Shown one piece after another: positions 5,789-39,940 of a DNA stretch of 64,000 bases. The DNA is taken from contig MTMD02000015.1 in assembly GCA_002010065.2 (NCBI GenBank), forward strand, positions 32,001 through 96,000, in the 5' to 3' direction. This DNA comes from Candidatus Pyrohabitans jungbluthii (GTDB lineage: Archaea; Hydrothermarchaeota; Hydrothermarchaeia; Hydrothermarchaeales; BMS3B). Position numbers and translations under genes: made by a program. Under the pieces are notes generated by a model that saw only the letters and a program-made list of their open reading frames with translations, was not told the DNA's origin and made no database searches. How positions within the stretch are numbered: position 1 is the stretch's first letter; the number at the start of each line of letters is the position of its first letter.

Positions 5789-5902
5789 GACAAAACCTCC
5801 TATAACTGCGGTTTGTGAGAAGGAACCCGCAGGTGGTTCCTATCTCCGGACACGTCTTCTTCCACAGGGGGGTAGAGGGGGGACGGAGTCCCCCTCTCTC
5901 GG

Positions 5903-5940
5903 CAAGAATATTTATAGGGTTAACAATATAAGATTTCTTG
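5903..5940. promoter_or_regulatory. Overlapping divergent BRE/TATA promoters (metG leftwards, tRNA-binding protein/RNR operon rightwards)
   Basis: CAAGAATATTTATAGG on + and CAAGAAATCTTATATTG on -, arranged as a quasi-palindrome. Confidence 0.55.
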
Positions 5941-5941
5941 C

Positions 5942-6295: not shown

Positions 6296-6296
6296 G

Positions 6297-8387
6297 ATGC
6301 GCGTAAAGAAGATTCGCAAGCGCGATGGCCGCGTTGAGGATTTCAACCCTGAGAAGATACGGAACGCTATTTTAAAAGCCTTTATCGCCACCGGAGAAGG
6401 CAACGGTAGCGTTGCCGGCGAAGTGGCGAGAGAGGTTGTCGCCCGCGTGGAGGAGCGTTTTGCGGGGCGCATTCCCGGCGTGGAGGATGTTCAGGACATA
6501 GTGGAAGAGACGCTTATCAAGCGGGGCTACGCCAAGGTGGCGAAGGCGTACATCCTATACAGAAAGCAGCGGGAGGAGATTCGCGCAGCCAAGAGTTTCA
6601 TCGGTGTGCGTGATGATTTAAAGCTGAGTGTTAATGCCACGCAGGTGCTGCAGAAGCGCTACCTGCTCAAGAACGATAAGGGCGAGGTTATAGAGACTCC
6701 AGCTCAGATGTTTCGCAGGGTGGCGAAGGCGATAGCAAAGCCTGAGAAGCGCTATGGCGGCGATGTTAAGCGTGCCGAGGAGCGCTTCTACTCGGCGATG
6801 GTTCGCCTGGATTTTCTTCCAAACTCGCCCACGCTGATGAACGCCGGAACGAAGCTGGGGCAGCTCAGCGCGTGTTTCGTCCTGCCCGTGGAGGATAGTC
6901 TTGAGAGCATCTTCGACGCTTTAAAGCACATGGCGCTGGTGCAGCAGAGCGGAGGTGGCACTGGCTTTAGCTTCTCAAAGCTCCGCCCTAAGGGCGACAT
7001 AGTGCGCTCCACAAAGGGCGTCGCTTCTGGGCCGGTGTCCTTCATACGCATCTTCGACGTCACGACGGACGTCATAAAGCAGGGGGGCAAACGCAGAGGA
7101 GCAAACATGGGCATTCTCAGAGTGGATCACCCGGATATAATAGAGTTCATTACAGTCAAGCAGCAGGAGGGTGTACTTGAGAACTTTAACATAAGCGTTG
7201 GCATTACCGACGCTTTCATGGAGGCTGTGCGTAAAGATGAGGAGTATCCGCTGGTGAACCCCCGGAATAAAGAGGTTGTCCGCCACATGCGTGCTCGCGA
7301 TGTGTTCGACATGATTGTAACCGCTGCCTGGCGCACAGGCGATCCCGGCTTGGTTTTCTTAGATGAGGTGAACCGCCACAATCCCACGCCGGCGCTTGGT
7401 GATATAGAGAGCACAAACCCTTGTGGGGAGGTACCTCTCCTGCCTTACGAGTCCTGCAATCTTGGCTCAATTAACCTCTCCCACTTTGTTTCTCGTGGAG
7501 AAGTGGACTGGGAGCGCCTGCGCAAGGCGGTTCGCCTGGGCGTGCACTTCCTGGACAATGTTATAGACGCCAACCGCTACCCCCTGCGCGCGATTGAGCG
7601 CATGACGAAGGGGAATCGGAAAATCGGCTTGGGGGTAATGGGCTTCGCTGAGATGCTCATAAAGCTGGGGATGCGCTACGATACCAAAGAGGCGGTGAGC
7701 TTTGCTGAGAAGCTGATGAGCTTCATTCAGCACGAGGCGAAGCAAAAATCTCGGGAGTTAGCGGAAGAGCGGGGCTCCTTCCCCAACATAGACAAGAGCA
7801 TCTACGCTGGCGAAGCCATGCGCAACGCCACTGTAACAACGATTGCTCCCACGGGAACAATAAGCATAATAGCCGGCACCAGCTCCGGGATAGAGCCGCT
7901 CTTCGCAATATCCTTCATCCGCAACGTTATGGAGGGCACAAAGCTGCTGGAGGTCAATCCCCTCTTCGAGCGCATCGCTCGCGAGAGAGGCTTCTATTCC
8001 ACGGCGCTCATGATGAAAATTGCAAAGACCGGCTCAATTCAGGATATGAAGGAGGTGCCCCGCGATGTTCGCGAACTCTTCGTCACAGCTATGGATATAG
8101 CACCGGAGTGGCATGTGCGCATGCAGGCGGCGTTCCAACGCCACGTGGACAACGCCGTATCTAAGACCATAAACCTGCCTCACGATGCCAGCTTGGAGGA
8201 CGTGCGCCGTGCCTTCTGGTTGGCGTACGAGCTGAAGTGCAAGGGCATAACCGTCTACCGCTATGGAAGCAAGCGGGAGCAGGTGCTCTACATAGGCTCA
8301 ATCCTGAAGAAGGAGACGGGCGAGGAGCACATAAGCGCAGACGCGGAGTATTCGGGGGGCTGTCCCACGAGGGAATGCATAGTGTGA
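6297..8387 (+). CDS. nrdJ: Adenosylcobalamin-dependent (class II) ribonucleotide reductase with N-terminal ATP cone
   Basis: KRDGRVEDF ATP cone, PNSPTLMNAG, LSACFV, TNPCGE, TIAPTGT, C-terminal CPTREC; adjacent cobalamin adenosyltransferase; no beta subunit nearby. Confidence 0.93.
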   Translation: MRVKKIRKRDGRVEDFNPEKIRNAILKAFIATGEGNGSVAGEVAREVVARVEERFAGRIPGVEDVQDIVEETLIKRGYAKVAKAYILYRKQREEIRAAKSFIGVRDDLKLSVNATQVLQKRYLLKNDKGEVIETPAQMFRRVAKAIAKPEKRYGGDVKRAEERFYSAMVRLDFLPNSPTLMNAGTKLGQLSACFVLPVEDSLESIFDALKHMALVQQSGGGTGFSFSKLRPKGDIVRSTKGVASGPVSFIRIFDVTTDVIKQGGKRRGANMGILRVDHPDIIEFITVKQQEGVLENFNISVGITDAFMEAVRKDEEYPLVNPRNKEVVRHMRARDVFDMIVTAAWRTGDPGLVFLDEVNRHNPTPALGDIESTNPCGEVPLLPYESCNLGSINLSHFVSRGEVDWERLRKAVRLGVHFLDNVIDANRYPLRAIERMTKGNRKIGLGVMGFAEMLIKLGMRYDTKEAVSFAEKLMSFIQHEAKQKSRELAEERGSFPNIDKSIYAGEAMRNATVTTIAPTGTISIIAGTSSGIEPLFAISFIRNVMEGTKLLEVNPLFERIARERGFYSTALMMKIAKTGSIQDMKEVPRDVRELFVTAMDIAPEWHVRMQAAFQRHVDNAVSKTINLPHDASLEDVRRAFWLAYELKCKGITVYRYGSKREQVLYIGSILKKETGEEHISADAEYSGGCPTRECIV

Positions 8388-8392
8388 TTCCC

Positions 8393-8914
8393 ATGCGCCG
8401 TGGCTTGGTCTACCTGTACACCGGCGAGGGGGAGGGAAAGACCACCAACGCAATAGGCTTGGCGGTTCGCGCTGTGGGGCAGGGCTTCAAGGCTATAGTG
8501 GTGCAGTTCCTCAAGGGAAACCCCGATATCGGCGAGTACAAGGTGCAGAAAAAGCTTGCTCCGCTCTACGAGGTCCACCAGTTCGGGAGCAGGCACTACA
8601 TCGACCTTCTCCACCCTCGTGCCGAGGATAAGGAGCACGCCAGGCGGGCGCTGGAATTTGCGAAGCGCGCAATGGAGCAGAAGCCACGTATCTTGGTGTT
8701 GGATGAGGTCAACCTCGCCGTCGCCTTTGGGCTTGTACCAAAGGAAGAAGTTCTTGAACTCATGGAGCGCGTGCCGCCAGAAACTGTACTGGTGCTTACA
8801 GGTAGGCGCGCACCCAAGGAATTCATAGAGCGCGCAGACCTGGTTACTGAGATGAGGCTGGTCAAACACCCCTACCAGCGGGGAGTTATCGGCAGGCGTG
8901 GCGTAGAGTACTAA
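8393..8914 (+). CDS. cobO: Cob(I)alamin adenosyltransferase (CobO/BtuR)
   Basis: YTGEGEGKTT, VQFLKG, VLDEVN, LTGR, ADLVTEM…KHP. Confidence 0.92.
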   Translation: MRRGLVYLYTGEGEGKTTNAIGLAVRAVGQGFKAIVVQFLKGNPDIGEYKVQKKLAPLYEVHQFGSRHYIDLLHPRAEDKEHARRALEFAKRAMEQKPRILVLDEVNLAVAFGLVPKEEVLELMERVPPETVLVLTGRRAPKEFIERADLVTEMRLVKHPYQRGVIGRRGVEY

Positions 8915-9540
8915 AGCAGCTTCTCGTACTTCTCCACCTTCTTCATCAGGTCTTCTCTTTCCAGCTCAAGTTTGCCTATCCTCTCCTTTAGCATGAAAAT
9001 TTCCTTTTCCTGCTCCTCCAGCTTTTTATCCTTCTTCTCCAGCTCCTTCTCCTTCTCCGCCAGATACCTCGTTAGAGTTTTCACCTCCGCCTCAAGCTCC
9101 GCGCTTTTACGCACAGCTTCGCGCAGCTCCCGCTCCTTTTCAAGCAGCAGCACCTTCTTCTCCTCTATATCTTCGCGATACCCCTCCACCTTTGCCTTAA
9201 AAGCAGCCCTCTCATTGGTAAGCTCAAGAATAATCTGCTCCTTCTCTTCCAGCTCCTTCTTAAGCCCTTCAAGCTCACTTTCCAGCTTCTCAAGCTGATT
9301 GTTCTTCTCTTTGAGCATTACCTTCAGCGCTTTTATCTCGCTCTCTGCCTTTTCGTAAAGCTCCTTAAGCTCGTCCCTCTCCTTCCTGTACTCCTCCAGC
9401 TGTGTTCTCTCCCCCTCCAGCTCCTGAAGCAGCTGCTCCTTCTCCTTTAGCTGCTTCAGCAGCGACTCTTCATGCTGCTTCAGCTTATTTATTTTGTCCT
9501 CGTAAAACTCTTTTTCCGTCGCATGCATAATGTTACGCAT
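8911..9540 (-). CDS. All-coiled-coil E/K-rich hypothetical protein
   Basis: Continuous heptad pattern over ~200 aa; host-like codon usage. Confidence 0.7.
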   Translation of the reverse strand: MRNIMHATEKEFYEDKINKLKQHEESLLKQLKEKEQLLQELEGERTQLEEYRKERDELKELYEKAESEIKALKVMLKEKNNQLEKLESELEGLKKELEEKEQIILELTNERAAFKAKVEGYREDIEEKKVLLLEKERELREAVRKSAELEAEVKTLTRYLAEKEKELEKKDKKLEEQEKEIFMLKERIGKLELEREDLMKKVEKYEKLL

Positions 9541-9550
9541 CCTTTAAAAG

Positions 9551-9624
9551 TGGAGTGGGGGAGATTTGAACTCCCGACCACTCGATCTTCAGTCGAGCGC
9601 TCTCCCAGGCTGAGCTACCACTCC
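9551..9624 (-). tRNA. tRNA-Phe(GAA)
   Basis: GGAGTGG acceptor stem, CTCGA-CTGAAGA-TCGAG anticodon arm, GTTCAAATC T-loop. Confidence 0.96.
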
Positions 9625-9773
9625 TAAGTATTATCATAATCTGAGCACGAACTTAAATATTTTACTCCGCTCTGTATTTTTAACATCATAAATCAGGTAT
9701 AACCCACAACGCCAGTTAAATACCCCGCAAGTTATTTATAGCTTCCGGCATAAAATCTGTTGGAGGGTGTGAT

Positions 9774-10985
9774 ATGAGAGGTAGATTAATCTTATTAACG
9801 TTCTGGATGCTTTTTATTCCCTTCACTTTCGCAGATAATGTTGATTTCTACATAATGAAGGTCTCTCCCGAAGAGGTTGCCCCAGGCGAAACCACAACGC
9901 TGAACATAACAATTGCCAACTTGGGCATAGATTATGCCGCATATGTGCATGCAATTCTCGACCCAGACTCGGTATCACCCCTCTCGGTGCTCGGGGCTAA
10001 GAAGATCTACGTAACAAAGTACGCGGCGGAGGGACAGCCAACCAAGTACTTCGGAGTTATACTCCAGAATGAAAGATTCACAGTGAGATACCGAGTACAC
10101 GTGGATAAAGACACGGCATTTGGCACTTATACTGTACCTCTCAAGCTGGTCTGGCGGGATGCGTACAATAACGTGCAGAGCGAGAACCTCGAGTTCGGGC
10201 TGAAGGTGGCTGGCGATCCCGAGATTGTTATTGCGGGGGTTAATAAGACCCCTGCGAGGATATATCCCGATACCGAGTTTACACTGGTGCTTGCTTTTGA
10301 GAATATAGGCACGGCAAAGGCGGAGAATGTTAAGGTGGAGCTTTCTCTGCCTCCTGGGATAACCGGCGAGAGGGTTGCATTTCTGGGCACCCTTGAAAGG
10401 GGCAGGCAAGCGGCTGCAACCTTCTCTTTGAAGGCTGAAAAGGAGGCTGAGGCGGGAGCCAAAAAGATAGGAGTAAAGTTGAGCTATACCACTGAGGAGA
10501 ACGCACAGGAACAACTCGATAAAGAGGTGGAGATCTTCATCTACGAGAAGGAACCCGCCAACTTAGAGGTTGCAGGCTTGGACACTTCTCCGGCGAAGCT
10601 CACGCCGGGTGCTGCATTTACCCTCTCCATCCAGCTTGAGAACATAGGCAAGCAGGATGCGAAGGCTGTTAAGGTTGAGCTTGCATTGCCTGAAACTTTC
10701 TCTGGCGGGCAGACCTCCTACTTGGGCACGATAAAGCAGGACGACACCTCTACTGCGATCTTTGACCTAGAGGTTTCACCCCTCGCCGAGCCGGAGAGCT
10801 ACCGCCTGCCGGTAAAGATTTACTATCTCGACGAAAAGGGTGAGCTTCACGAAGAGGAGAAGGAGATCGCAATAATCATAACCAGCCCCGAAAAGCGTCT
10901 GCCACTGGGATTGCTCGGTGGAGTTGGAATACTGCTAATTATTGCCCTCGCCTGGTGGCGCAGGCGGAGAAACGCCCAGCTCTAG
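9774..10985 (+). CDS. COG1361 S-layer-domain/Ig-like repeat membrane-anchored protein
   Basis: Signal peptide, repeated 'ENIG…A..VKVEL.LP' Ig-like units, C-terminal TM plus RRRR. Confidence 0.8.
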   Translation: MRGRLILLTFWMLFIPFTFADNVDFYIMKVSPEEVAPGETTTLNITIANLGIDYAAYVHAILDPDSVSPLSVLGAKKIYVTKYAAEGQPTKYFGVILQNERFTVRYRVHVDKDTAFGTYTVPLKLVWRDAYNNVQSENLEFGLKVAGDPEIVIAGVNKTPARIYPDTEFTLVLAFENIGTAKAENVKVELSLPPGITGERVAFLGTLERGRQAAATFSLKAEKEAEAGAKKIGVKLSYTTEENAQEQLDKEVEIFIYEKEPANLEVAGLDTSPAKLTPGAAFTLSIQLENIGKQDAKAVKVELALPETFSGGQTSYLGTIKQDDTSTAIFDLEVSPLAEPESYRLPVKIYYLDEKGELHEEEKEIAIIITSPEKRLPLGLLGGVGILLIIALAWWRRRRNAQL

Positions 10986-27035: not shown

Positions 27036-29426
27036 TTACAGCGCAGCTGCAAGCGCCTCGGCAGCAGCGCGGGTTTCTGTCCTGGTCTTACCAGCGACGA
27101 TTATTGCATACTTGCCGCTGGCAAAGGCATCGGCAATTACCTCTATGTCGCCATCGCTGGTTTCCCAGTTAACTGTGCTCTTCCCTGCTTCCACGAGGCT
27201 TGCGGTAAGCTTGTTCGCCACTGGTCCGCCGATAAGGACAAGGTTCATGTCCTTGTTAGCGGTGTCCTCGTCGACTATCTCGAGCTCTGGAGCCTTCTCT
27301 TCGCCACCGACTGCTGTAACAGTTATCGTCTCCGTGAGGAATTCCTTGTAGGGTTTCTTACCGGACCTCAGCTTTGAACCGCTGCTAACAGTGGTCTCCT
27401 CTGAGGTTCTAATCTTAAGCAGGTTGTTGTCATCATCGTACTCAACGGTATAAAGGGTATCCGGAACCTCAACAATCTCCTCGTCTTCCACTGTGAGGGT
27501 GGAGCTCCTGAACTCGAAGATAACATTGCTCGTGCTGGTTATGTCGCTGGGAGCCTTCACCTTCGCATAGCCAAGGACACCCTCGTCACCATCCTCAAAG
27601 GTAACAGTAGCGTCAGGGTCTACATAGCCGATGGTTATCGCTGAGTTGTCATCCACCGCACGAGCAACAAGGAAATCGCCGGAGAATATGTCCTTAACCT
27701 TATCGTCCTTGTCCGCGGTCACCCAGTCGCCTACAGCTTTACCAGTGAAGTTGTAGTAGTACAGCGAGCCATCTATCCATATACCAGCCAAGTTCGTGGT
27801 GCTGTTGTAGCTGTAGAAAGCAACCTCCTTGCCCTCAATTGTAATCTTGTTGGAAAGATCACTGGACTTGGGTATGGTCTTCTTGGAGATTATACCCATC
27901 TTTATTGTGTCCGCATCAGTGTCAATCTTGCTAACAAAGTACTGCTTGTCCCTGATCTTGGCTGTGCTACCATCCACGTACTTTAATACCTCTTTCTCAG
28001 TGGCTTTGAGGCGGTATGCAAAGGTAACATCTACCGACTTGCCGCCTTCCTCATAGTACATGAAGTCGTACAACAGGTAATCATCGTCATACTCTGGCGA
28101 GCCATCACCGTCTTCGTCAAAGTACAGCTTCACCGAATTGGTCGAAGAATTGCCAGACGCATAATCAGTTATTGTCTGATCTGCTCCAGGATCATCTGCA
28201 CTATCGCTGTCCAAGTCCTTGCTACCCCACTCTATCCTGAGGTCTTCGCCGACTGCTGTAACGGTTATTGTCTCTTTGAGGAATTCCTTGTAGGGTTTCT
28301 TACCGGACCTCAGCTTTGAACCGCTGCTAACAGTGGTCTCCTCTGAGGTTCTAATCTTAAGCAGGTTGTTGTCATCATCGTACTCAACGGTATAAAGGGT
28401 ATCCGGAACCTCAACAATCTCCTCGTCTTCCACTGTGAGGGTGGAGCTCCTGAACTCGAAGATAACATTGCTCGTGCTGGTTATGTCGCTGGGAGCCTTC
28501 ACCTTCGCATAGCCAAGGACACCCTCGTCACCATCCTCAAAGGTAACAGTAGCGTCAGGGTCTACATAGCCGATGGTTATCGCTGAGTTGTCATCCACCG
28601 CACGAGCAACAAGGAAATCGCCGGAGAATATGTCCTTAACCTTATCGTCCTTGTCCGCGGTCACCCAGTCGCCTACAGCTTTACCAGTGAAGTTGTAGTA
28701 GTACAGCGAGCCATCTATCCATATACCAGCCAAGTTCGTGGTGCTGTTGTAGCTGTAGAAAGCAACCTCCTTGCCCTCAATTGTAATCTTGTTGGAAAGA
28801 TCACTGGACTTGGGTATGGTCTTCTTGGAGATTATACCCATCTTTATTGTGTCCGCATCAGTGTCAATCTTGCTAACAAAGTACTGCTTGTCCCTGATCT
28901 TGGCTGTGCTACCATCCACGTACTTTAATACCTCTTTCTCAGTGGCTTTGAGGCGGTATGCAAAGGTAACATCTACCGACTTGCCGCCTTCCTCATAGTA
29001 CACTATGTTATACAGCTTGTAGTCATCGTCATACTCCGGTGAACCATCGCCATCTGCATCAAACCAGAGTGTCACGGAAGCATTGCCAGCCGTATAATCA
29101 CTAACACTTACATCCGCATTGTCATTGGTGGAATTTCCATCGCTGTTCAGATCCGGAGATGCCCACTCAATCTTTATATCGCCACCGACTCCGCTCACCT
29201 TCAGCTTCTCCGCCACAGCATCCTTAATTACCTCAGCGCTGGCAGTGTCAGCGTCCTTGCCAGGCGCGTCTTTGCCCACCACAAGCTGTGCCTTTGCCTC
29301 ACCGTTCTTTGCCAGCATGTCAGGCGAAAAATCGCTGGGCACACTTACCGCACTGGCTAAACCTACGGTTGCCCCAATAAACAGAGCACCCGTCGCAATC
29401 GCTCCTATTTTCTTCAAACTTACCAT
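27036..29426 (-). CDS. S-layer protein (Methanococcales/Thermococcales-type N- and C-terminal domains) with duplicated central domain
   Basis: KKIGAIATGALFIGAT signal, VVGKDAP…D, C-terminal NLVLIGGPVANKLT…IIVAGKTRTET; tandem strong promoters. Confidence 0.88.
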   Translation of the reverse strand: MVSLKKIGAIATGALFIGATVGLASAVSVPSDFSPDMLAKNGEAKAQLVVGKDAPGKDADTASAEVIKDAVAEKLKVSGVGGDIKIEWASPDLNSDGNSTNDNADVSVSDYTAGNASVTLWFDADGDGSPEYDDDYKLYNIVYYEEGGKSVDVTFAYRLKATEKEVLKYVDGSTAKIRDKQYFVSKIDTDADTIKMGIISKKTIPKSSDLSNKITIEGKEVAFYSYNSTTNLAGIWIDGSLYYYNFTGKAVGDWVTADKDDKVKDIFSGDFLVARAVDDNSAITIGYVDPDATVTFEDGDEGVLGYAKVKAPSDITSTSNVIFEFRSSTLTVEDEEIVEVPDTLYTVEYDDDNNLLKIRTSEETTVSSGSKLRSGKKPYKEFLKETITVTAVGEDLRIEWGSKDLDSDSADDPGADQTITDYASGNSSTNSVKLYFDEDGDGSPEYDDDYLLYDFMYYEEGGKSVDVTFAYRLKATEKEVLKYVDGSTAKIRDKQYFVSKIDTDADTIKMGIISKKTIPKSSDLSNKITIEGKEVAFYSYNSTTNLAGIWIDGSLYYYNFTGKAVGDWVTADKDDKVKDIFSGDFLVARAVDDNSAITIGYVDPDATVTFEDGDEGVLGYAKVKAPSDITSTSNVIFEFRSSTLTVEDEEIVEVPDTLYTVEYDDDNNLLKIRTSEETTVSSGSKLRSGKKPYKEFLTETITVTAVGGEEKAPELEIVDEDTANKDMNLVLIGGPVANKLTASLVEAGKSTVNWETSDGDIEVIADAFASGKYAIIVAGKTRTETRAAAEALAAAL
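27335..29002. repeat. 726 bp direct repeat (27335-28060 = 28277-29002), period 942 bp, inside the S-layer gene
   Basis: Identical translated sequence and identical DNA at every point compared by eye; flanks diverged. Confidence 0.9.
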
Positions 29427-29687: not shown

Positions 29688-30182
29688 ATGGAAAGCACCA
29701 CTCAGGTCCTCACAGGCGCACCCCCGGAGCTGGTTGTTATTGTAATCGCCGCATTACCCGTATCTGAGCTTCGAGGAGCTATACCCATGGCTCTGAAGAT
29801 ATACGGGATGAGCCCTTGGAAGAGTTACATACTCGCGGTGTTTGGAAACCTCTTACCCGTGCCGGTGTTGCTTTTATTCCTCGGCAGGGTTGAAAGCTAC
29901 CTGAGGAGCAGGTTTTCAATTTTTGATAGCTTTTTCTCCTGGCTTTTTTCAAGGACGAGAAGGAGAACCAAGGATAAGGTGGAAAAGTACGGCGCCCTGG
30001 GTTTGGTGCCCTTCGTAGCATTGCCACTGCCGGTGACGGGAGCGTGGACCGGCGTAGCCGCAGCCTACGTGTTTGGAATAAGGTTCCGCTACGCCTTCCC
30101 TGCGATAGCGCTGGGCGTGATAATAGCTGGGGTTATTGTCACCCTTGCATCCCTGGGCGCGCTAAGCATCATCGGGATGTGA
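29688..30182 (+). CDS. COG2426 small multidrug-export-related membrane protein
   Basis: LPVSELRGAIP, FVALPLPVTGAWTG. Confidence 0.88.
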   Translation: MESTTQVLTGAPPELVVIVIAALPVSELRGAIPMALKIYGMSPWKSYILAVFGNLLPVPVLLLFLGRVESYLRSRFSIFDSFFSWLFSRTRRRTKDKVEKYGALGLVPFVALPLPVTGAWTGVAAAYVFGIRFRYAFPAIALGVIIAGVIVTLASLGALSIIGM

Positions 30183-31034
30183 GCTCCGCAAGAGATGCGT
30201 ACCGTCGCAGCTCCGCGCTGTGTTCAACCTAAAACCTTCACGACAGGTGGCGAAGGTTATCCCGTGCTTATCGCATGCGTCGCGCACGCGTTGCATGAGC
30301 TTAAAGCGCACTTCTCTGGGTAGGTAGTATGAGTTCTGAATCCTCTCCCCCTTCTCAAAGTAAAGCTCTTTTAGATTCACCGCAGATTCGGGGAAAGCTT
30401 TGCTAAAGCGGCGCCAGGAGTCGGGGCGAGGTTTAAAGGTAGAGGAGGTTACATGGGCTACGCCTATGTCGGCAAGCTCTTTAACCAAGGCGCTTAAATC
30501 ATCGTTTATCCCGGGGATAATCGGGTCGATTCTGCACGCCACTGGTATGCCGCGTTCCGCCAAGCTTTGCAGGGTGCGCAGCCTGCGCTCAGGCGGAGGT
30601 GCGAAGGGCTCAAGCCTCGCTGCGATGCCCTCATCGAGGGTGGTTATGGTCATAGCCACGGCTGCGCGCATCTCCGCAAGCAGGTCAGCATCTCTCACCA
30701 CTAGGTCCCCCTTTGTAATTATCTCCACCCCGAAATTAAAATCCTTCAAAAGCTTCAGGCAAGCTCTGGTTTGCCTGTAATCTCTCTCCAGTGGCTGGTA
30801 GGGGTCTGAGCTGTTGGAGATAGTAACAGGTATGCGCGGGTCGAGTTTCGCTATGTCGCGCTTAACCTGCTTCAACAGGTTCTTCTTCAACCTCGCCTCA
30901 AAGCCGCGTGGGATGTAGCTGGTGATGTAGCAGTACACGCAGCTATGCGAGCACCCCGTATATGGGTTCAGCGAGTACTTTCGCGGGCAGGTGCACAGCT
31001 TCGAACGCCAGGGGTCAAATAGGGAGATTGCCAT
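30162..31034 (-). CDS. Radical SAM protein, SPL-like (COG1533)
   Basis: LNPYTGCSHSCVYCY, SNSSDPYQPLE, ITKG, RIDPIIPG. Confidence 0.88.
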   Translation of the reverse strand: MAISLFDPWRSKLCTCPRKYSLNPYTGCSHSCVYCYITSYIPRGFEARLKKNLLKQVKRDIAKLDPRIPVTISNSSDPYQPLERDYRQTRACLKLLKDFNFGVEIITKGDLVVRDADLLAEMRAAVAMTITTLDEGIAARLEPFAPPPERRLRTLQSLAERGIPVACRIDPIIPGINDDLSALVKELADIGVAHVTSSTFKPRPDSWRRFSKAFPESAVNLKELYFEKGERIQNSYYLPREVRFKLMQRVRDACDKHGITFATCREGFRLNTARSCDGTHLLRSSHPDDA

Positions 31035-32362: not shown

Positions 32363-32668
32363 TTAGAGAAGCCCCATATTGATAAGGCGGTCAACCTGAG
32401 GCTTGGTGTAGCGCCAGACCACGTCGCCCTTCTTGTCCCCCTGCACCTTCCAGGGCTTTACTATTACCACGTCCCCAACCTTGATCCATATTCTGCGCTT
32501 TATTTTACCCGGGATGCGCACCATGCGAAGCTTGTTGTCCTTGCAGCGCACCAGCATGCGGGAACCGCCGAACATCTGCTCCACTACGCCAAGAACCTCA
32601 TCATCTTTGGGCAGGCGAAGCCTCCGCAAAGCAGCCTCTTCGTCCTCGTACTCTTCCTCTACTACCAA
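32363..32668 (-). CDS. eif1a: Translation initiation factor aIF-1A
   Basis: RIPGKIKRRIWIKVGDVVIVKPW…KGDVVWRY. Confidence 0.95.
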   Translation of the reverse strand: MVVEEEYEDEEAALRRLRLPKDDEVLGVVEQMFGGSRMLVRCKDNKLRMVRIPGKIKRRIWIKVGDVVIVKPWKVQGDKKGDVVWRYTKPQVDRLINMGLL

Positions 32669-33121
32669 TGAATCACCTCTCTATTTATCTCCCCAATCGC
32701 TTTATAAAAGTTCCGTGGGTGATGCACGCGCTGGATAAGATTATATCTTAATTACTATTTAACGTTGTAAACCCTATCGCAGGGTTAGAATTGGTAACTC
32801 GCTAACCAAGTAGCTGAGGCGCTACCGCAGGCTCAGTGAAAAGCTGCAGGCTTTTCCATATCTTGCAAATCAAAGCAAAACACAGGGTTTAGTTGTACGC
32901 AAAGTATCATACTAATCTTACAACTTTTTGTTGATAGGCAGGAGATTCTAAGTTTCTGCTTTCATTTCTTTTAATTCCATCTGCCTGTCAAGGAATTTAA
33001 TAATCGTATCCATACTAATTGAAAGTTATATTAGAGGTAAAGAGCCGTAATCTAATTTTCACTGCCGACGATAAACTTAATATAGCTCAATAGCATTATC
33101 ACACTGTTAAAGAAAAATTTA

Positions 33122-33241
33122 ATGCGGGGTGCAAGAGTGGACAGGAAGGAGAGAAAGGATTGGAAGCTCACCATTGAAGATTTTGAGAAGGCTGCCTGCT
33201 ACCGTGACCACGGTGACTACCGCCCCATTGCGCCTCAGTAG
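33122..33241 (+). CDS. Putative RiPP precursor peptide MRGARVDRKERKDWKLTIEDFEKAACYRDHGDYRPIAPQ (alternative GTG start at 33137, 34 aa)
   Basis: Short ORF read manually; upstream TATA-like box near 33075; GGGGTG SD before the GTG; 18 nt before an RRE-rSAM gene. Confidence 0.72.
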   Translation: MRGARVDRKERKDWKLTIEDFEKAACYRDHGDYRPIAPQ

Positions 33242-33259
33242 TATCCTGGTGCCGACGCA

Positions 33260-34570
33260 ATGGCTGCGCATGTGGTGAGAAGGAACCCCAACGTAGTTTA
33301 TCGCAGAGAAACCCGGGGTGGCACGGTAGAGGGTTTACTACTTTTTAACTATTCCACTCGTGGGATACATTTTCTTGAGGGTTTAGCAGCTAAGCTATGG
33401 GAAGTGTGCGAGGGGAAGAGCGCAGAGGAGATTGCGCATTCTCTAAAGCTGAGCAAAGCTGAGGTTGAGCGCTTTCTTGGGGAGCTTGAGGCTCGCAGGC
33501 TGGTGCGCTACAAAGGCGAGGGTAGCGAGGGTGACAACGAGGCTTTGAGCACCTCTGGCAAAGGAATGTGGAGCTCCCGGGTTTACTTCGATTCGCCAAT
33601 CTTTGTGCAATTCGACGTTACCAATGCCTGCAACCTGCGCTGCGCCCACTGCGTTACCTCCTCGGGTGAACCTCTGGAAAATGAGCTTTCAACGCAGGAG
33701 GCGCTCTCGTTGATTGATGAGCTTGCGTCGCTCGGGGTTTTCCAGATAGGCTTCTCCGGCGGAGAAGCGCTGCTACGCAGGGATATCTTCACGCTGATGG
33801 AGCACGCGAAAAAGCGAGGCATAAAGGTGCAGCTCACCACAAACGCAACGCTTATCAGCGAAGCTACAGCGAAGAAGCTGGTGAAGCTCGAGCCTATCAC
33901 CGTTGGGGTTAGCCTTGAAGGAGCAACAAAGCAGAGCTACGGAAGCTTTCGCGGCGAGGAGAACTTTGAGCGTGCCCTCTCCGGGGTACGCGCGCTCTTG
34001 CGCCACTCGCTGCCGGTGAAGCTGAAGGTCGCTGTTTCAAGGCGCAATCTTAGCGAGGTGGACGCAATTCTCAAGCTGGCGGTTGAGCTGGGCGTTGAGG
34101 CTGTGGATATGTTCCTACTCTATCCCGAGGGGAGAGCCAGGGGCATGAAGGACGAAGCCCTGAGCAGCACGGAAATTAAGGAGTTCTTAACCCTGCTTGC
34201 AAGGAGGCGCAGGGAGTACGAGGGAAAGCTTGCGATAGATGTGGACGACAAGCCCAACGCCTTTCTGGTTGACGCTTCTCTGGGTGCGAGCACCTGTGGC
34301 GCAGGCGCGTACTGGGCGGAGGTGCTGCCAAACGGAGATGTGGTGCCCTGCATTTTCCTGCGCAGTATGCGCGCTGGCAATGTGCGCGAGGCGAGCTTCA
34401 AGGAGATATGGCAGGGCAGCGTGTGGGAGCCTCTGCGCTCCCGTAGGCTAAAGGGGAGGTGCGGTGAGTGTGAGCACGCCTCTCGCTGCGGCGGGGGATG
34501 CAGGGCGAATGCGCTTTTACTGCTGGGCGACATAATGCAAGAGGATGCGCTGTGCTGGTACGGTGGTTAG
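33260..34570 (+). CDS. PqqD/RRE-fused radical SAM-SPASM peptide maturase
   Basis: N-terminal LLLFN…IHFLEGLAAKLWEVCEGKSAEEIA…VERFLGEL (RRE-like); CNLRCAHC; SPASM C…PC…CGEC…CGGGC…C. Confidence 0.85.
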   Translation: MAAHVVRRNPNVVYRRETRGGTVEGLLLFNYSTRGIHFLEGLAAKLWEVCEGKSAEEIAHSLKLSKAEVERFLGELEARRLVRYKGEGSEGDNEALSTSGKGMWSSRVYFDSPIFVQFDVTNACNLRCAHCVTSSGEPLENELSTQEALSLIDELASLGVFQIGFSGGEALLRRDIFTLMEHAKKRGIKVQLTTNATLISEATAKKLVKLEPITVGVSLEGATKQSYGSFRGEENFERALSGVRALLRHSLPVKLKVAVSRRNLSEVDAILKLAVELGVEAVDMFLLYPEGRARGMKDEALSSTEIKEFLTLLARRRREYEGKLAIDVDDKPNAFLVDASLGASTCGAGAYWAEVLPNGDVVPCIFLRSMRAGNVREASFKEIWQGSVWEPLRSRRLKGRCGECEHASRCGGGCRANALLLLGDIMQEDALCWYGG

Positions 34571-34571
34571 G

Positions 34572-35570
34572 GTGAACGCCTCAGGGTTATACGCGGTGGA
34601 GATCAGGCTAACAAAAGCGTGCAACCTGCGCTGCGCTCATTGCTCCGTCGCCGGAGGGGAGGCGGCGCGGGATGAGCTGGGCACCTCTGAGATAAAGCAC
34701 GTGCTTGACCAGCTTGCAGAGCTTCGCGTTCCCTACGTCACCTTCACAGGGGGCGAGCCTCTGCTGCGCAGGGACGCGATAAAGCTCATCGCATATGCAT
34801 CTTCGCGGGGGCTGCGCCCAAACCTGGACACCAACGGCATGCTCATAAACCCTGCCAAAGCCAAGCGCCTTAAAGAGGTAGGCATTGATCTGGTGCAGGT
34901 GAGTATCGATGGCACAGAGGAGACCCACGAAAAGATACGCGGGCAGGGAAGCTATGCTGCGGCGATTCGTGGTGCCAGGGAGGTGGTCAGGGCAGGGATT
35001 CCACTGCACATCAACTTCACCCTATCCAAGCTCAACCTCTCCGACCTCGAAGCAGTGGTGGAAACCGCCTCTTCCTTGGGGGCGAGAAGCCTCAGCCTGG
35101 AGAGGTTCATCGCCATCGGCAGGGGAGGAGCTATCGCCGAGCAGGCGCTTAGCAGCGAGGAGTTTCGTGAGGCACTGCACAGGTTTTTCTCACTGGCTGA
35201 GCATACACAGGTAAAGCTTCTCACCACCGACCCGCTGCGCGTGCTCATAGATCGCAAGCTTATAGAGCGCTACCGCGAGGAGATGTCGCGAAGAGTTTGC
35301 GGTGGGTGCACCGCTGGCATTGCAGCGCTAACCATATCCTACGACGGTGAGGTGTACCCCTGTCCGAAGCTACCCCTAAGCGTAGGTAATGTTCGTGAGC
35401 AGAGCATCGCAGAGATATGGCAGGGCAATGAGACCCTAGCGGCGCTGCGCGCGCGGGAGTTTAAGGGCAGGTGCGGTGAATGTGAGCTGGTAAATCTGTG
35501 CGGTGGGTGCAGGGGCGAGGCATTCGCGAGGGGAGATTTTCTTGGCGAAGACACCATGTGCTGGAAGTGA
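34572..35570 (+). CDS. Radical SAM-SPASM enzyme (no RRE)
   Basis: CNLRCAHC, TGGEPLLR, CTAG…YPC…CGEC…CGGC…C. Confidence 0.88.
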   Translation: MNASGLYAVEIRLTKACNLRCAHCSVAGGEAARDELGTSEIKHVLDQLAELRVPYVTFTGGEPLLRRDAIKLIAYASSRGLRPNLDTNGMLINPAKAKRLKEVGIDLVQVSIDGTEETHEKIRGQGSYAAAIRGAREVVRAGIPLHINFTLSKLNLSDLEAVVETASSLGARSLSLERFIAIGRGGAIAEQALSSEEFREALHRFFSLAEHTQVKLLTTDPLRVLIDRKLIERYREEMSRRVCGGCTAGIAALTISYDGEVYPCPKLPLSVGNVREQSIAEIWQGNETLAALRAREFKGRCGECELVNLCGGCRGEAFARGDFLGEDTMCWK

Positions 35571-35574
35571 TGGT

Positions 35575-36651
35575 ATGCGTGACGAGGAGCTTAAGGTTGA
35601 ACTTCTGTGCCGGGGAATGAAGGTTCCTGAGCAAGCGTGGAGCTACTACAAGCGGAGCGCGGGCTTTCCGATAAGGTTTGGGGATACGCTGGTAAGCGTG
35701 CCCTCCTTGGGCAAGTACGACCGCTACAGCTTCGTAGAAGCTTCGCCTTACAGCATAACGAGAAGCGACGGGAAGTGGCTGCTTCTTAAGGACGGGGAAG
35801 TGATTCGCGAAGTCGACGTAGCCGAGGTGCCCGGCTTTTACGAGAAGCTGAGCAGCGATGGCGTGGAGATGAAGCGCATATTCCAGGTTTGTGGCTGGGA
35901 CTGCGTGCTCACAGGCGTTGTTCAGAGCTGTGCCTACCAGAGGCGTGGCACCCAATGCAGGTTCTGTGGCACCATCTACAACCCTGCCTACGAGGGCAGG
36001 CTGGACAGGAAAACGCCTCAGCAGCTTGCTGAAGCCGCTGAAGCAGCGGTGGAGCACGGGATAAAGCATGCGGTTATAACCTCCGGCGTAATGCCCACCC
36101 CCGACAGGGGAGCGCGCCTCTTGCTGGAGGCTGCGAAGGCGATTAAGGAACGCGTGGATATCCCGCTTGAGGCTGAGCTCGCTCCGCCACAGGATTTGCG
36201 CTACTTGGAGCTTCTTTTAGAGCACGTGGACAGCGTGAGCATAAACATCGAAACTTTAGACCAGCGAGTGCGAGAGTACGCCTGTCCCGATAAATCCAAT
36301 ATACCCTACGAGGAATACTTCGCGGCGTATGAGCTCGCCCTCGAGGCTCTCGGCGAAAACCAAGTGAACTCCTGGCTCATCGCCGGTCTAGGGGAGAGTG
36401 ATGAGGCGATCATCGAAGGGGTTGAAGAGCTCGCTGAACGAGGCGTCTTCCCCTTCCTTGTGCCCCTCCGTCCCACAAAGGGCACGGGCTATGAGAACAC
36501 GCCGCCACCATCGCCGGAGAGGCTGAGCACGCTTGCCATGCAGGCTGCGGAGGTGGTTAAAGACTTCGGGCTGAAGCCAGAGAAGAACAAAGCCGGATGC
36601 ATGAGGTGCTCCGCGTGCTCACCCGTGAGGGACTTTCTGAAGCTGGTGTAG
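35575..36651 (+). CDS. Radical SAM enzyme, MSMEG_0568/biotin-synthase-like, CX8CX2C motif
   Basis: QSCAYQRRGTQCRFC; ITSG; LIAGLGE; C-terminal GCMRCSACS. Confidence 0.8.
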   Translation: MRDEELKVELLCRGMKVPEQAWSYYKRSAGFPIRFGDTLVSVPSLGKYDRYSFVEASPYSITRSDGKWLLLKDGEVIREVDVAEVPGFYEKLSSDGVEMKRIFQVCGWDCVLTGVVQSCAYQRRGTQCRFCGTIYNPAYEGRLDRKTPQQLAEAAEAAVEHGIKHAVITSGVMPTPDRGARLLLEAAKAIKERVDIPLEAELAPPQDLRYLELLLEHVDSVSINIETLDQRVREYACPDKSNIPYEEYFAAYELALEALGENQVNSWLIAGLGESDEAIIEGVEELAERGVFPFLVPLRPTKGTGYENTPPPSPERLSTLAMQAAEVVKDFGLKPEKNKAGCMRCSACSPVRDFLKLV

Positions 36652-37313
36652 GGCTAAAGGAGAAGTGGAGGCGCGGCTACGAAGGGTTGGCTCAGCTTAT
36701 AGCACAGCATATTTACGGGCGCGTGCTTGAGGCGGGCGCTGGCAGAGGACAGCTCACTCAGGCGCTATTGCGCTACCACGAGAACCTCGTAGCCCTGGAT
36801 GCATCGCCGGGAGAGCTTTTTAAGCTTAAACAAAGCTGCCATGTTACGGCGGTGGCAGGAGCTTTTGAGGCGCTGCCCTTCGCGGCGGGGAGCTTCAACT
36901 GCGTGGTGAGCAACTTCACCGCGGGCTGGCTAAACGAGGAGCACTTGCTCAGAGCGCTTAAAGAGTTTAAACGGGTGCTCGCCAAAGGCGGCGTCGCGAT
37001 ACTCAGCGACTTTTACCCGGAGGCAAGGAGCAAGGCGGAAGAGGTGGCGCTGCTTCAGGGCTTGCCCGAGAACAACCTCTTGCCTTCGGAGAAGTGGTGG
37101 CATCCCGAGGAGATTGCAGCGCTTGCAGCGAAGGCTGGCTTTGAGGAGGAGAAGCTAGCCTTCTACGACTGGGGCATACGCTTCACCAGAGAGGAGGCGA
37201 TACTCCAGCTCACGCGGTGGCATGCTAAGCAGGAGTTCATAGGCCGCATAGACGCTCTGCTTTCAAGGCATGGCATGGCTCTTCCCCAAAGCTATGTGCT
37301 CATGCTGAGGTAG
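36597..37313 (+). CDS. Class I SAM-dependent methyltransferase (true start uncertain, probably near 36650-36690)
   Basis: VLEAGAGRG, ALDAS, LPFAAGSFNCVV, RVLAKGG. Confidence 0.8.
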   Translation: MHEVLRVLTREGLSEAGVGLKEKWRRGYEGLAQLIAQHIYGRVLEAGAGRGQLTQALLRYHENLVALDASPGELFKLKQSCHVTAVAGAFEALPFAAGSFNCVVSNFTAGWLNEEHLLRALKEFKRVLAKGGVAILSDFYPEARSKAEEVALLQGLPENNLLPSEKWWHPEEIAALAAKAGFEEEKLAFYDWGIRFTREEAILQLTRWHAKQEFIGRIDALLSRHGMALPQSYVLMLR

Positions 37314-37317
37314 GGAT

Positions 37318-38106
37318 ATGAAGCTTCTCATCCTGGCTGGAGTGCATGGAGATGAGCCTGCTGCAGTGGAGGCAGCGAAGAGACTGGCGAGGCTTTTCCG
37401 GGACAGTGAAGAGGTTGAGGTGGTGCCGGAGGCTAACCCGGAGGCATGCTTTGCCGGCACCAGGCTGAGCCCCAGCGATGGCAGGGATTTAAACCGCTGC
37501 TTTCCAGGAAATGAAGAAGGGACGAGCACAGAGAGGCTTGCATTTAGGCTTTTTCAGAAGGTGCTTGAGGCTGAGGTTGTGGTGGACCTGCACACGCCCA
37601 GCATGGGCAGAGCGTACCTGCCCCACGCCAGGCTGCGCGTGGCCATGCCAAAGCTGAGAGAGCTGTGCTCCTATGCGGGCATGGACTATGCCACCCTTGA
37701 TGTACCTGAGCAGGGAATGCTCCAGGTGGAGGCTTCTCAGCGGGGGATACCTGTGCTCACCCTTGAGGCTGGAGAGGGAGGCAAAGCAGGCGAAGAAACG
37801 GTTAACGCTCTTGTGGAAGCGGTGCTGGGAGTGGCGCGAAGTCTGGGCGTAGCAGAAGGCGAGGCTGCTCGCGGAGAGGTGCGCTTTGTGAAGCGGGAGC
37901 GGATTCTGAGCGATGCCTCGGGTAAGCTTAAGATGAAGGTGGCGCTAGGCGATGAGGTGAGGCTGGGCACCATAGTTGCGAAGGTTGGAAAGACAAGAAT
38001 AAAGTCCCACGTGAATGGCATTGTTCTGGGTGTGAGTTCTCAGGAGTACGTGGAGGAGAATGAGTTTGTCGCCAGCATAGGCGTGGAGGTTCAGCATGAA
38101 TTATGA
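37318..38106 (+). CDS. M14-family Zn hydrolase (succinylglutamate desuccinylase/aspartoacylase-like)
   Basis: GVHGDE, DLNRCFPG, VDLH, TLEAG. Confidence 0.88.
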   Translation: MKLLILAGVHGDEPAAVEAAKRLARLFRDSEEVEVVPEANPEACFAGTRLSPSDGRDLNRCFPGNEEGTSTERLAFRLFQKVLEAEVVVDLHTPSMGRAYLPHARLRVAMPKLRELCSYAGMDYATLDVPEQGMLQVEASQRGIPVLTLEAGEGGKAGEETVNALVEAVLGVARSLGVAEGEAARGEVRFVKRERILSDASGKLKMKVALGDEVRLGTIVAKVGKTRIKSHVNGIVLGVSSQEYVEENEFVASIGVEVQHEL

Positions 38107-38638
38107 GGAATGCTATGAGCTTATAAAGCGCGCTCGCTACCGCGATGCAATCTCTTGCTTAGAACGCCTGCTCAGCGCCAACCCGCGCGACGACCGCGCG
38201 TGGGTTACCAAGGCGGGGGCGCACCGTGCCATAGGCGAATACCACGAGGCTTTGAGCTGCTACGACGAGGCGATTAAGCTCAACCCGAGCAACGACGACG
38301 CGTGGTACTTCCGCGGCAAGCTCTTCGCCAGATGGAGTGAGCACGCTGAGGCTGAGCGCTGCTTTGCCGAGGTGCTGAAGCTCAACCCGCGCGATGAGTA
38401 CGCATGGATAGGCAGAGGAAAGGCGCTTAAAGGTTTAGCCCGCTACGAGGAGGCGCTGCGCTGCCTGGACAAAGCTATTGAGATTAACCAGCGCAACGAG
38501 GACTCGTGGATGCTTAAGGCGGAGGTGCTGCTGAAGCTGGGGAAGCGCGACGCTGCCATCGCCTGCCTCAAGCGCGTGCTGGAAATTAACCCCAGAAACG
38601 AGGACGCGAAGGATAAGCTGGAGAGGATAAGGGAATGA
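38096..38638 (+). CDS. Tetratricopeptide repeat protein
   Basis: About five 34-aa repeats with AW..(K/R)G…A..C…(A/V)(I/L)..NP. Confidence 0.9.
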   Translation: MNYEECYELIKRARYRDAISCLERLLSANPRDDRAWVTKAGAHRAIGEYHEALSCYDEAIKLNPSNDDAWYFRGKLFARWSEHAEAERCFAEVLKLNPRDEYAWIGRGKALKGLARYEEALRCLDKAIEINQRNEDSWMLKAEVLLKLGKRDAAIACLKRVLEINPRNEDAKDKLERIRE

Positions 38639-39702
38639 CGCTGAGCGTTGCTGACAAGAAGATACTTATCCAGAGCAAGGGGCTGAGAATCCCCTGGGAA
38701 GTGGAAAAAGAGCTAGCACAGCGCTTCGCGGGCGTTGAGAGCGACTATCCCAGCTTCTTCCTCGAGGGCAGCACACCTGTGGGTCTGCTCAACGGCTTCT
38801 ACACTGAAGCCTCGCCCTTTGAGCTTCGCAGGCATTGCAAGGGGTATGCGATTTTTTGCGACGACGAACCCTTCGCAGAGGTGAGCTTTCTACCTCGCAC
38901 CCCCTTCCTCGACAGGCGCACCTCTCGAGGCATAGCAATGAGGCGCATTGTTAAGATGGTTGCCCCCGGGTTTCCGATAATCTACCTTAACACGGGATGC
39001 ATGTACTGGGGGGAGAAGCAGTGCAAGTTCTGCGTGGTGGGGCACATAGACACAGAGAAGTTTAAGAACCCAGAGGATGTGGCTGAAACCGTCGAAGCTG
39101 GAGTCAAAGACGGTGGTATAAAAACCCACGTGGCGCTCACCAGTGGGGCTTTGCCCAAGGATAAGGCGATTGACCTGCTCGCAGCCACTGTAAAGGCGAT
39201 TAAAGAGCGCGTAGATATACCGGTTTCCGTTAATCTTGAGCCTCCAAGGGATTTGGGCAAGCTTGAGATGCTTGCTGATGCTGACTCTATATACCTGAAC
39301 ATGGAAGTCTACGACCCTGCCGCAAGGAAGCGCTTTCTCCCGGGCAAGAGCGAATTCTCGCCTGAGTACTACTTCAGAGCCTTTAAAGCATGCCTCGATA
39401 TATTCGAGGAGAACCAGGTATGCTCTGTGCTGCTCGCTGGCCTAGAGAGCGACGAGAGCTATCTGCGCGGCGTTGAAGCCCTCGCCGAGCGTGGCGTGCT
39501 CCCCGTAACCACGCCCTTCTACCCAGCGCTCCTCTCAAAGCTAGCGGACGAGAAGCCGCCCTCCGCCGAGAGGATGCGCCGCATATACGAGCGCAGCGTG
39601 GAGATAATCCGCGCCTATGGTTTGGACCCCTTCAAGACAAAAGCAGGTTTTATGCGCGGCGGCGCAATCTTCGCCCTCAAGGAGGTTTGGAAGGAGATGT
39701 AA
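38635..39702 (+). CDS. Radical SAM enzyme, paralogue of 35575, CX7CX2C motif, no C-terminal Cys
   Basis: TGCMYWGEKQCKFC; LTSG; LLAGLE; C-terminal AGFMRGGAIF. Confidence 0.8.
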   Translation: MTLSVADKKILIQSKGLRIPWEVEKELAQRFAGVESDYPSFFLEGSTPVGLLNGFYTEASPFELRRHCKGYAIFCDDEPFAEVSFLPRTPFLDRRTSRGIAMRRIVKMVAPGFPIIYLNTGCMYWGEKQCKFCVVGHIDTEKFKNPEDVAETVEAGVKDGGIKTHVALTSGALPKDKAIDLLAATVKAIKERVDIPVSVNLEPPRDLGKLEMLADADSIYLNMEVYDPAARKRFLPGKSEFSPEYYFRAFKACLDIFEENQVCSVLLAGLESDESYLRGVEALAERGVLPVTTPFYPALLSKLADEKPPSAERMRRIYERSVEIIRAYGLDPFKTKAGFMRGGAIFALKEVWKEM

Positions 39703-39940
39703 AAGGGCTATCCAAATTATCCTTATTATCCTTAATATATATGACCAGCCAGAACATTTCAATGATGCTGCTATATAGGCCTACCAAACCCAAAATCTCC
39801 CGCAAGTCTAGTTTCCTCATTATTATGTGATATGAGGGTACTAAATTATTCAGTAATACCCCAAACAATACAAGGGGAGCGATAAACTATATATATGCAG
39901 AATTTTTAAGGAGATAATTACCAATCCCGGAGACCAGATT

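Follow-up and report, generated by a model that had tools for sequence, protein, structure and literature searches.

A conserved small gene encoding a probable precursor peptide for a radical S-adenosylmethionine enzyme cassette in Hydrothermarchaeota

The peptide gene and its product

The stretch of DNA analysed here, referred to below as the window, comprises 64,000 nucleotides (positions 32,001 to 96,000 of the forward strand of contig MTMD02000015.1, assembly GCA_002010065.2) of the hydrothermarchaeon Candidatus Pyrohabitans jungbluthii, and all coordinates are those of the window. A small open reading frame (ORF) at 33137-33241 lies directly upstream of a cassette of seven genes, A to G, and there is a high probability that it is a translated precursor, recognised by the RiPP recognition element (RRE; RiPP, a peptide made by the ribosome and modified after translation) of enzyme A and modified by the cassette. 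An earlier reading of the sequence letters (the original prediction) had proposed the ORF as a precursor peptide for the adjacent radical S-adenosylmethionine (rSAM)/SPASM enzymes, and both the conservation of the locus and a controlled structure prediction for the complex support that proposal.

The ORF at its maximal length extends on the forward strand from an ATG at 33122 to position 33241 and encodes 39 amino acids (MRGARVDRKERKDWKLTIEDFEKAACYRDHGDYRPIAPQ). The likely product is nevertheless the 34-residue form that begins with GTG (33137..33241, including the stop codon), because the Shine-Dalgarno spacing in the homologues matches that of the GGGGTG before the GTG at 33137. This GGGGTG (33126..33131, +) is located 5 nt upstream of the GTG, GGTG or GGAGG is found 5-6 nt upstream of the homologues' start codons in three other lineages, and the ATG at 33122 overlaps the ribosome-binding site. 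Both ORF lengths and the GGGGTG had been described in the original prediction, with which the translation and the upstream sequence agree. An A/T-rich TATA-like element (TTAATATA, 33077..33084, +), read from the sequence, is a putative archaeal promoter of the cassette, and each of the four lineages compared has an A/T-rich element about 45-60 nt upstream of its peptide start. The peptide ORF lies inside a 590-nt AT-rich spacer between the genes for eIF-1A and enzyme A, with the eIF-1A gene (32363-32668, -) divergently transcribed and bordering the spacer on the other side; 18 nt separate the peptide stop from the start of gene A on the same strand. The gene is single-copy in its own genome, and its product matched no family in Pfam or NCBIfam. 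An Rfam scan of 32600-33400 gave a lone lncRNA match, which was below threshold and was judged to be due to chance.

Three parts can be distinguished in the peptide. The leader (residues 1-20; 33137..33196, +) has a Lys/Glu/Arg-rich N-terminus followed by the segment W-K-L-x-[IV]-E-D-F-E-[KR]-[AT]-A, and is kept in all ten variants described below. The core (residues 21-30; 33197..33226, +) reads C-Y-R-D-H-G-D-Y-[RT]-P, and the C-terminal tail (33227..33238, +) is variable, being IAPQ here and three to seven residues long in relatives, in which it differs in sequence also (e.g. VGDF and TYPRKR). The core has the Tyr-x-x-His-x-x-Tyr spacing that had been pointed out beforehand, and can also be divided into aromatic-X-X triads, of which there are three in tandem (Y-R-D, H-G-D and Y-[RT]-P), with an acidic residue and a tyrosine four positions apart (D24 to Y28). 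A repeated YR had likewise been noted and is present here, but the second copy is not invariant, being Y-T in one lineage. The peptide has only one cysteine, Cys21, which is invariant in 10/10 variants.

Conservation and distribution

When 41 genomes of relatives were searched with enzyme A, orthologues were found in five besides its own, with 59-94 % identity and E-values of 4e-148 or better, and the next-best matches were at 40 % identity or less. The same small ORF is located directly upstream of the enzyme A orthologue in all five of these other Hydrothermarchaeota genomes. Two of the peptides (genomes G001 and G004) are identical to that of the window, and the others are MEKKEVKKWKLSIEDFERAACYRDHGDYRPVEPQ (G009), MEEKTEWKLSIEDFEKAACYRDHGDYRPVGDF (G025) and MDEKEWKLTIEDFEKTACYRDHGDYTPIPPE (G019). 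A collection of 5.8 billion proteins contributed six peptide clusters at 90 % identity (P0001-P0006) and a metagenome scan two further variants (L038 and L039). Altogether there are ten distinct peptide sequences, all of which fit W-K-L-x-[IV]-E-D-F-E-[KR]-[AT]-A-C-Y-R-D-H-G-D-Y-[RT]-P, with A-C-Y-R-D-H-G-D-Y invariant throughout. The orthologues of enzyme A fall to 55-58 % identity while the peptide core stays invariant, so that conservation at the amino acid level in related loci, on which the original prediction had been made to depend, is clearly seen.

The pattern of nucleotide substitution also follows the reading frame of the peptide. The proportion of synonymous differences (pS) is 0.55-0.86 and that of nonsynonymous differences (pN) 0-0.10 over 22 aligned codons in all non-identical pairs, the identical pair L001/L021 being left out, and third codon positions account for 89 of the 119 pairwise nucleotide differences in the gene. 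In the peptide frame there are 13 % amino acid differences and no stop codon, whereas the other five frames have 23-48 % differences and all contain stops. Judged from this codon pattern, the ORF is a real gene under strong purifying selection.

A hidden Markov model (HMM) of the peptide matches 6 of 38 genomes of the phylum, belonging to 4 of 21 genera, and these are the same six that carry enzyme A orthologues among the 41 genomes searched; the peptide is co-inherited with the cassette. When the peptide profile was compared with 1.84 billion representative proteins, there was one true cluster. Among the other matches, a 1336-residue metagenome repeat protein (P0123) has C-Y-F-D-H-N-D-Y-like motifs, with eight stretches that match the profile, but these lie within a beta-rich repeat domain and the match looks to be a chance one, as does that of a repetitive 464-residue protein (P0124). 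Three bacterial genome-scan matches (L026-L028) were rejected also, being internal stretches of proteins of 389-757 residues with no homologue of A, B, C, D, E or G nearby; their surroundings yielded one weak tetratricopeptide repeat (TPR) match to F (E-value, 4e-4). Within the reach of the searches made, the family appears to be confined to genomes of the Hydrothermarchaeota type, and because small ORFs are often uncalled in metagenomes, counts from protein databases understate its spread. We note that the N-terminal extension of one enzyme A orthologue, P0023 (482 residues), appears to read the peptide gene in the wrong frame, so that the small ORF is apparently masked there by a mis-called start of enzyme A.

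Enzyme A and the predicted binding of the leader

Gene A (33260..34570, +) encodes a 436-residue rSAM/SPASM maturase with matches to Pfam Radical_SAM (2.1e-23) and SPASM (1.5e-11) and an N-terminal PqqD-like RRE. The radical-SAM motif is CX3CX2C (Cys124/128/131) and the seven-cysteine SPASM pattern is intact (C346-X12-G-X4-C364; C401-X2-C-X5-C-X3-C414; C432), and all of these cysteines are invariant in 17 orthologues. PF05402 (PqqD) matches 11 of the 17, with a best value of 7.1e-08, although the window's own enzyme A is below threshold (19.1 bits versus 23.4). In the AlphaFold model of A, which has a mean predicted local distance difference test score (pLDDT) of 70, residues 12-78 form three strands followed by three helices, which is the topology of an RRE, and the block means for residues 1-80 are 70-94. 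In the lineage of G019 and in seven protein clusters (P0025-P0031) the rSAM protein is about 340 residues long and does not include the RRE. In the G019 locus (L006/L023) it occupies a separate frame of about 80 residues with its own stop (approximately 1254-1493) and the rSAM/SPASM gene follows at about 1504-2508, so that enzyme A is naturally split in this lineage, in the manner of PqqD and PqqE.

Co-folding of the peptide (6-row alignment) with enzyme A (17-row alignment) gave a score of 0.83 (the median of 0.83, 0.84 and 0.78), compared with 0.02 for the best control; among solved complexes 116 of 157 attain the mark applied to this score, as do 2 of 215 mismatched pairs. At least 88 % of contacts are common to the runs, and the partner has a pLDDT of 59 or more. 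The tightest contacts are between A residues 35-39, the third RRE strand (β3), and peptide residues 13-17 (IEDFE), and with the lowest expected error peptide residues 11-17 (L-T-I-E-D-F-E) touch A residues 35-39, 42-46 and 72-79, in the strand and the RRE helices. The peptide as far as residue 32, core included, touches the ends of the barrel strands and SPASM residues of A. These models support binding of the leader to A through the RRE, and the leader on the RRE is what the original prediction had led one to look for in such a co-fold.

The cassette

The seven genes A-G are all on one strand, with overlaps or gaps of no more than 4 nt. Gene B (34545..35570, +, as the longest ORF; translation may in fact begin at a GTG at 34563 or 34572) encodes a second rSAM/SPASM protein, which has no RRE. 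Gene C (35503..36651, +, with a likely start at Met25, position 35575) encodes a variant rSAM protein of the MSMEG_0568 type with a CX8CX2C motif and a C-terminal CxxCxxC that is nearly invariant. Gene D (36597..37313, +) encodes a class I SAM-dependent methyltransferase (Pfam Methyltransf_11, 4.4e-16) and gene E (37318..38106, +) a Zn hydrolase of the AstE/AspA family (AstE_AspA_cat, 2e-30), deacylase- or carboxypeptidase-like and with HGDE near its N-terminus; the PDB sequence matches of E are 3cdx, DoeB (6twm) and MpaA, and its relatives are N-acyl-amino-acid deacylases and MpaA. A TPR-repeat protein is encoded by gene F (38096..38638, +; TPR_1, 2e-33) and a second variant rSAM protein, with CX7CX2C and no C-terminal Cys triad, by gene G (38635..39702, +). 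Genes D, F and G are syntenic in relatives. Two rSAM enzymes, both with SPASM domains, had been expected downstream of the peptide, and two SPASM enzymes are indeed found (A and B), but the number of rSAM genes in the cassette is four (A, B, C and G).

The order pep-A-B-C-D-E-F-G is kept in loci L021, L022 and L025, and in L023 as far as the contig reaches. In L024 it is kept with E missing, so that E is in the cassette in five of the six genomes; G025 has an E homologue only at 34 % identity, on another contig. The genes that flank the cassette are common to the genus only, and in the congener G002 the eIF-1A, multiheme cytochrome c and DUF515 genes lie next to one another without an intervening cassette. 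The cassette is thus a self-contained block of 6.6 kb, which a genome either has or lacks. It has a GC content of 0.577, compared with 0.521 in the rest of the window. No leader peptidase, exporter or immunity gene was found within the conserved cassette in a Pfam scan. In L025 (G009) two NosL-family genes and a MacB-type ABC transporter (FtsX permease and ATPase) lie just upstream of the cassette, at 5346-9860, and a 149-residue ORF without a Pfam match overlaps the end of G; a link between the cassette and copper or NosL was considered and rejected, since the NosL and MacB genes flank the cassette in G009 only and are not conserved.

Family relationships of the enzymes

None of the curated equivalog cut-offs in NCBIfam was reached by the cassette enzymes (for A, among the best 25 of 85 matches), including those of the PQQ (pyrroloquinoline quinone), mycofactocin and sactipeptide models; against WgkB, for instance, A scores 163 bits with a cut-off of 650. 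The orthologues of A form a tight group of 27 clusters at 55 % identity or more, with the next sequences at 39 % or less. In the PDB the best match of A by sequence is PqqE (1.9e-22), and the top ranks in a Foldseek comparison are SkfB, PqqE, SuiB, TigE, CteB and anSME. The possibility that A and B are tandem duplicates gained no support from a rapidly built, incomplete tree of 52 rows, in which they fall in separate clades (SH-like approximate likelihood ratio test, SH-aLRT, 99 each) and are not sisters.

Proteins C and G both pass the NF045502 domain model (185.3 and 182.1 bits; cut-off 125) and both fall below the cut-off of TIGR04043 (262.3 and 169.8 bits; cut-off 303.7). There are 22 clusters of C orthologues at 55 % identity or more, and beyond these, at 36-46 %, Methanomicrobia and Asgard archaea have proteins of the MSMEG_0568 family. 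A search by sequence gave no PDB match for C; its model has a pLDDT of 92, and the closest folds found by Foldseek are LipA, HydE, LIAS, BioB and ThiH, with template modelling (TM) scores of 0.45-0.6.

Comparison with known peptide-maturing systems

Close parallels are found with the PQQ system (PqqA/PqqD/PqqE), in which, as here, a short precursor is encoded directly upstream and a PqqD-type element serves the rSAM enzyme, fused to it in the cassette or split from it in one lineage in the manner of PqqD and PqqE. PqqE is, as noted above, the best PDB sequence match of A, the core of the cassette peptide is invariant, and there is no exporter in the cassette. PqqA carries an acidic-X3-Tyr motif, and the D24 to Y28 pair of the core is reminiscent of it. 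On the other hand, A is well below the PqqE cut-off (TIGR02109; 134.5 bits, and 141.3 for B, against 381.35), the core has Asp rather than Glu, and the cassette is archaeal and adds a second SPASM enzyme, two variant rSAM proteins, a methyltransferase and an AstE-like hydrolase. The Pfam domains of PqqB and PqqC are absent from the seven cassette proteins, to which the search for them was confined.

Among the peptide-maturase models, A comes nearest to passing that of the mycofactocin maturase MftC (TIGR03962; 189.2 bits, and 167.1 for B, with a cut-off of 265), and the RRE-dependent logic and the small, highly conserved precursor are also shared with the MftA/MftB/MftC system. The mycofactocin precursor ends in a C-terminal Gly-Val-Tyr, whereas the cassette peptide has neither this nor a conserved terminal Tyr and ends in a variable tail. 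The Pfam scan found no creatininase-type peptidase, flavoenzyme or glycosyltransferase in the cassette.

Streptide (SuiA/SuiB), SkfB and CteB share with A the combination of an RRE, an rSAM barrel and a SPASM domain and provide its top structural matches, and the predicted binding of the leader on β3 resembles the solved complexes; the identities are 15-23 %, however, the NCBIfam scores are below the cut-offs, and the core and accessory enzymes differ. Resemblance to the triceptides, the products of three-residue cyclophane-forming (3-CyFE) rSAM/SPASM enzymes, is seen in the core. We know of no triceptide counterpart for the five further cassette enzymes. A solved triceptide synthase, ChlB (9gmc), is not among the PDB sequence matches of A at an E-value of 1e-5 or better and ranks 46th by Foldseek, there is no triceptide model among the best 25 of the 85 NCBIfam matches of A, and A has its kin in the AhbD/NirJ/MftC/PqqE group. 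In PMC11499958, triceptides are defined by an Omega1-X2-X3 motif, with YDR, HTK, HAA and HNR as Tyr/His examples, and the tandem aromatic-X-X motifs of the cassette core are a likeness in motif presence only.

Proposed pathway, product and alternative explanations

We infer the modification chemistry, the roles of B to G and the fate of the product as follows. The leader W-K-L-x-I-E-D-F-E-K-A-A would dock as an added beta-strand on the N-terminal PqqD-like recognition element of A, and this docking would feed the invariant core C-Y-R-D-H-G-D-Y-R-P into the radical-SAM barrel. Enzyme A first, and then the RRE-less, paralogue-like B, would abstract hydrogen atoms and introduce cross-links into the core, and C, with its extra Cys triad, together with G, the methyltransferase D and the Zn hydrolase E, would tailor and trim the product, with the TPR protein F probably holding the peptide for those enzymes that have no RRE. 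In this way the cassette probably turns the peptide into a heavily modified small molecule of an undescribed kind. The suggestion in the original prediction, that Tyr, His and Cys may be the cross-linked residues and that the two SPASM enzymes could make two links, did not take into account the two further rSAM enzymes, the methyltransferase, the Zn hydrolase and the TPR protein.

As to the chemistry, the chances are about even that Tyr, His or Asp residues carry aromatic-to-side-chain C-C links, of the type seen in PQQ, streptide or cyclophanes. These links are favoured over a thioether because the kin of A are PqqE, MftC and AhbD and not the thioether or triceptide synthases, and thioether chemistry at Cys21 seems unlikely, with some other chemistry accounting for the remaining chance. 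The strongest form of the thioether reading, in which A or B joins Cys21 to a second residue of the core by a thioether of the sactipeptide or ranthipeptide type as the main modification and the aromatic residues are uninvolved, is less probable again; it competes with the chemistry favoured here and not with the status of the peptide as a precursor. The invariance of Cys21 is consistent with such a thioether, as is the presence of SkfB and CteB among the structures closest to A. The models for StsB, PapB, AlbA and SkfB do give sub-threshold matches to A, but all are far below their cut-offs (162 bits against 625, 76.2 against 340, 78.2 against 850 and 85.7 against 300, respectively). Moreover, sactipeptides and ranthipeptides usually have several Cys donors, whereas this peptide has a single Cys, and a thioether would leave the equally strict invariance of Y-R-D-H-G-D-Y unexplained.

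The product may be a small intracellular molecule, cofactor-like or metal-binding, although we would put this somewhat short of an even chance, and a released peptide natural product is credible to the same extent. The former fits with the invariance of the leader and core and the single copy of the precursor gene, with the lack of an exporter, leader peptidase or immunity gene in the conserved cassette, and with the presence of a deacylase-type hydrolase and the kinship of A, B and C to cofactor maturases; an accessory natural product fits equally well, since the distribution is patchy and cassette-like. The more specific suggestion that a peptide-derived cofactor or metal-binding prosthetic molecule is carved from the invariant C-Y-R-D-H-G-D-Y core by the four radical-SAM enzymes and used intracellularly is a speculative one, which we regard as rather doubtful. 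If correct, such a system would join those for PQQ and mycofactocin as the third of their kind and the first archaeal one, and one LipA/BioB-like rSAM enzyme with an auxiliary cluster could insert sulfur.

Several points weigh against the peptide being a precursor that A recognises and the cassette modifies. Both binding and modification are predictions. The SPASM part of the model of A is of low confidence, residues 329-373 and 395-436 having pLDDT values of less than 50; the alignments used in the co-fold were shallow, and the co-fold may owe part of its score to resemblance to RRE-leader complexes already solved, for example that of SuiB and SuiA (5v1t). Release of the mature product is left unexplained by a conserved cassette without a leader peptidase or exporter. 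Finally, the best NCBIfam matches of both A and B are to tetrapyrrole enzymes, namely NirJ2 and AhbD, of heme d1 and heme b synthesis, although none of these reaches the cut-off of 500 (for A, 230 and 216 bits respectively; for B, 251 with AhbD and 236 with NirJ2).

These last matches raise the alternative that the enzymes act on a non-peptide substrate, a tetrapyrrole or other cofactor intermediate, with the small protein as an accessory subunit or regulator, and the resemblance of C to the small-molecule enzymes LipA, HydE and BioB could be taken in the same sense, as could the multiheme cytochrome c gene just after the cassette in two congeners. We consider this very improbable. The scores of A and B are below or barely half of the NirJ2 and AhbD cut-offs, and B was rejected as the housekeeping heme synthase AhbD because there are better candidates on other contigs of the genome (463.5 and 297.5 bits). 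Furthermore, A carries a peptide-recognition element and in the co-fold the core passes into the barrel, while the cytochrome gene is found also in the cassette-less congener and does not adjoin the cassette in this genome. As for the ORF being an unmodified small protein that is merely co-located, or an untranslated chance ORF, its shortness and lack of a Pfam or NCBIfam match could suggest as much, but the purifying selection specific to its frame, the conserved Shine-Dalgarno motif, the strict co-occurrence with A (6/6) and the predicted complex with A make this exceedingly improbable.

Relationship to described families

Systems in which an RRE guides the action of an rSAM/SPASM enzyme on a short precursor are known. 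The precursor family, its invariant core and the ensemble of enzymes, however, match no curated family tested, and on these comparisons of sequence this is a genuine new precursor family. To our knowledge, radical-SAM-modified peptides from archaea are almost unexplored. We found no description of this family in the literature, supplements not included, on Hydrothermarchaeota radical SAM proteins, archaeal SPASM RiPPs, MSMEG_0568 or peptide-derived cofactors. In PMC13635244 both mentions of Hydrothermarchaeota are in the reference list, and PMC13692751 concerns a different Cys-rich protein system.

The peptide is conserved letter for letter across families of this uncultured phylum from hydrothermal settings while the enzymes diverge, a pattern consistent with a product for which the precise structure is important, for instance a cofactor, a metal ligand or a specific signal. 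No characterised counterpart was found for the set of two SPASM rSAM proteins, two MSMEG_0568-type variant rSAM proteins, a methyltransferase and an AstE-like hydrolase, so that solving the product would probably bring new radical chemistry to light. The MSMEG_0568/variant-rSAM family would also gain its first function in this way. At 6.6 kb the cassette is compact, and it can be tested directly by heterologous expression.

Neighbouring genes

The neighbouring genes in the window encode eIF-1A, a RIO kinase, a KH protein, an S-layer protein and a DUF515 protein, a set that identifies the organism as archaeal. In congeners a multiheme cytochrome c gene (386-388 codons) is located between the cassette, or eIF-1A, and DUF515 (L021, 10006-11166; L044, 11440-12606); it is missing here, where a 240-nt low-GC spacer remains (39703-39940). 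A further rSAM protein, with a match to DUF1848, is encoded at 30162-31034 (-) and adjoins the KH, RIO and eIF-1A genes, with which it is kept in congeners; it lies outside the cassette. The S-layer-like gene (27036-29426, -; 796 residues) contains a near-exact internal direct repeat of about 735 nt, at 27305-28041 and 28247-28983, with a start-to-start spacing of 942 nt, which could reflect a domain recently duplicated in frame or else an artefact of assembly.

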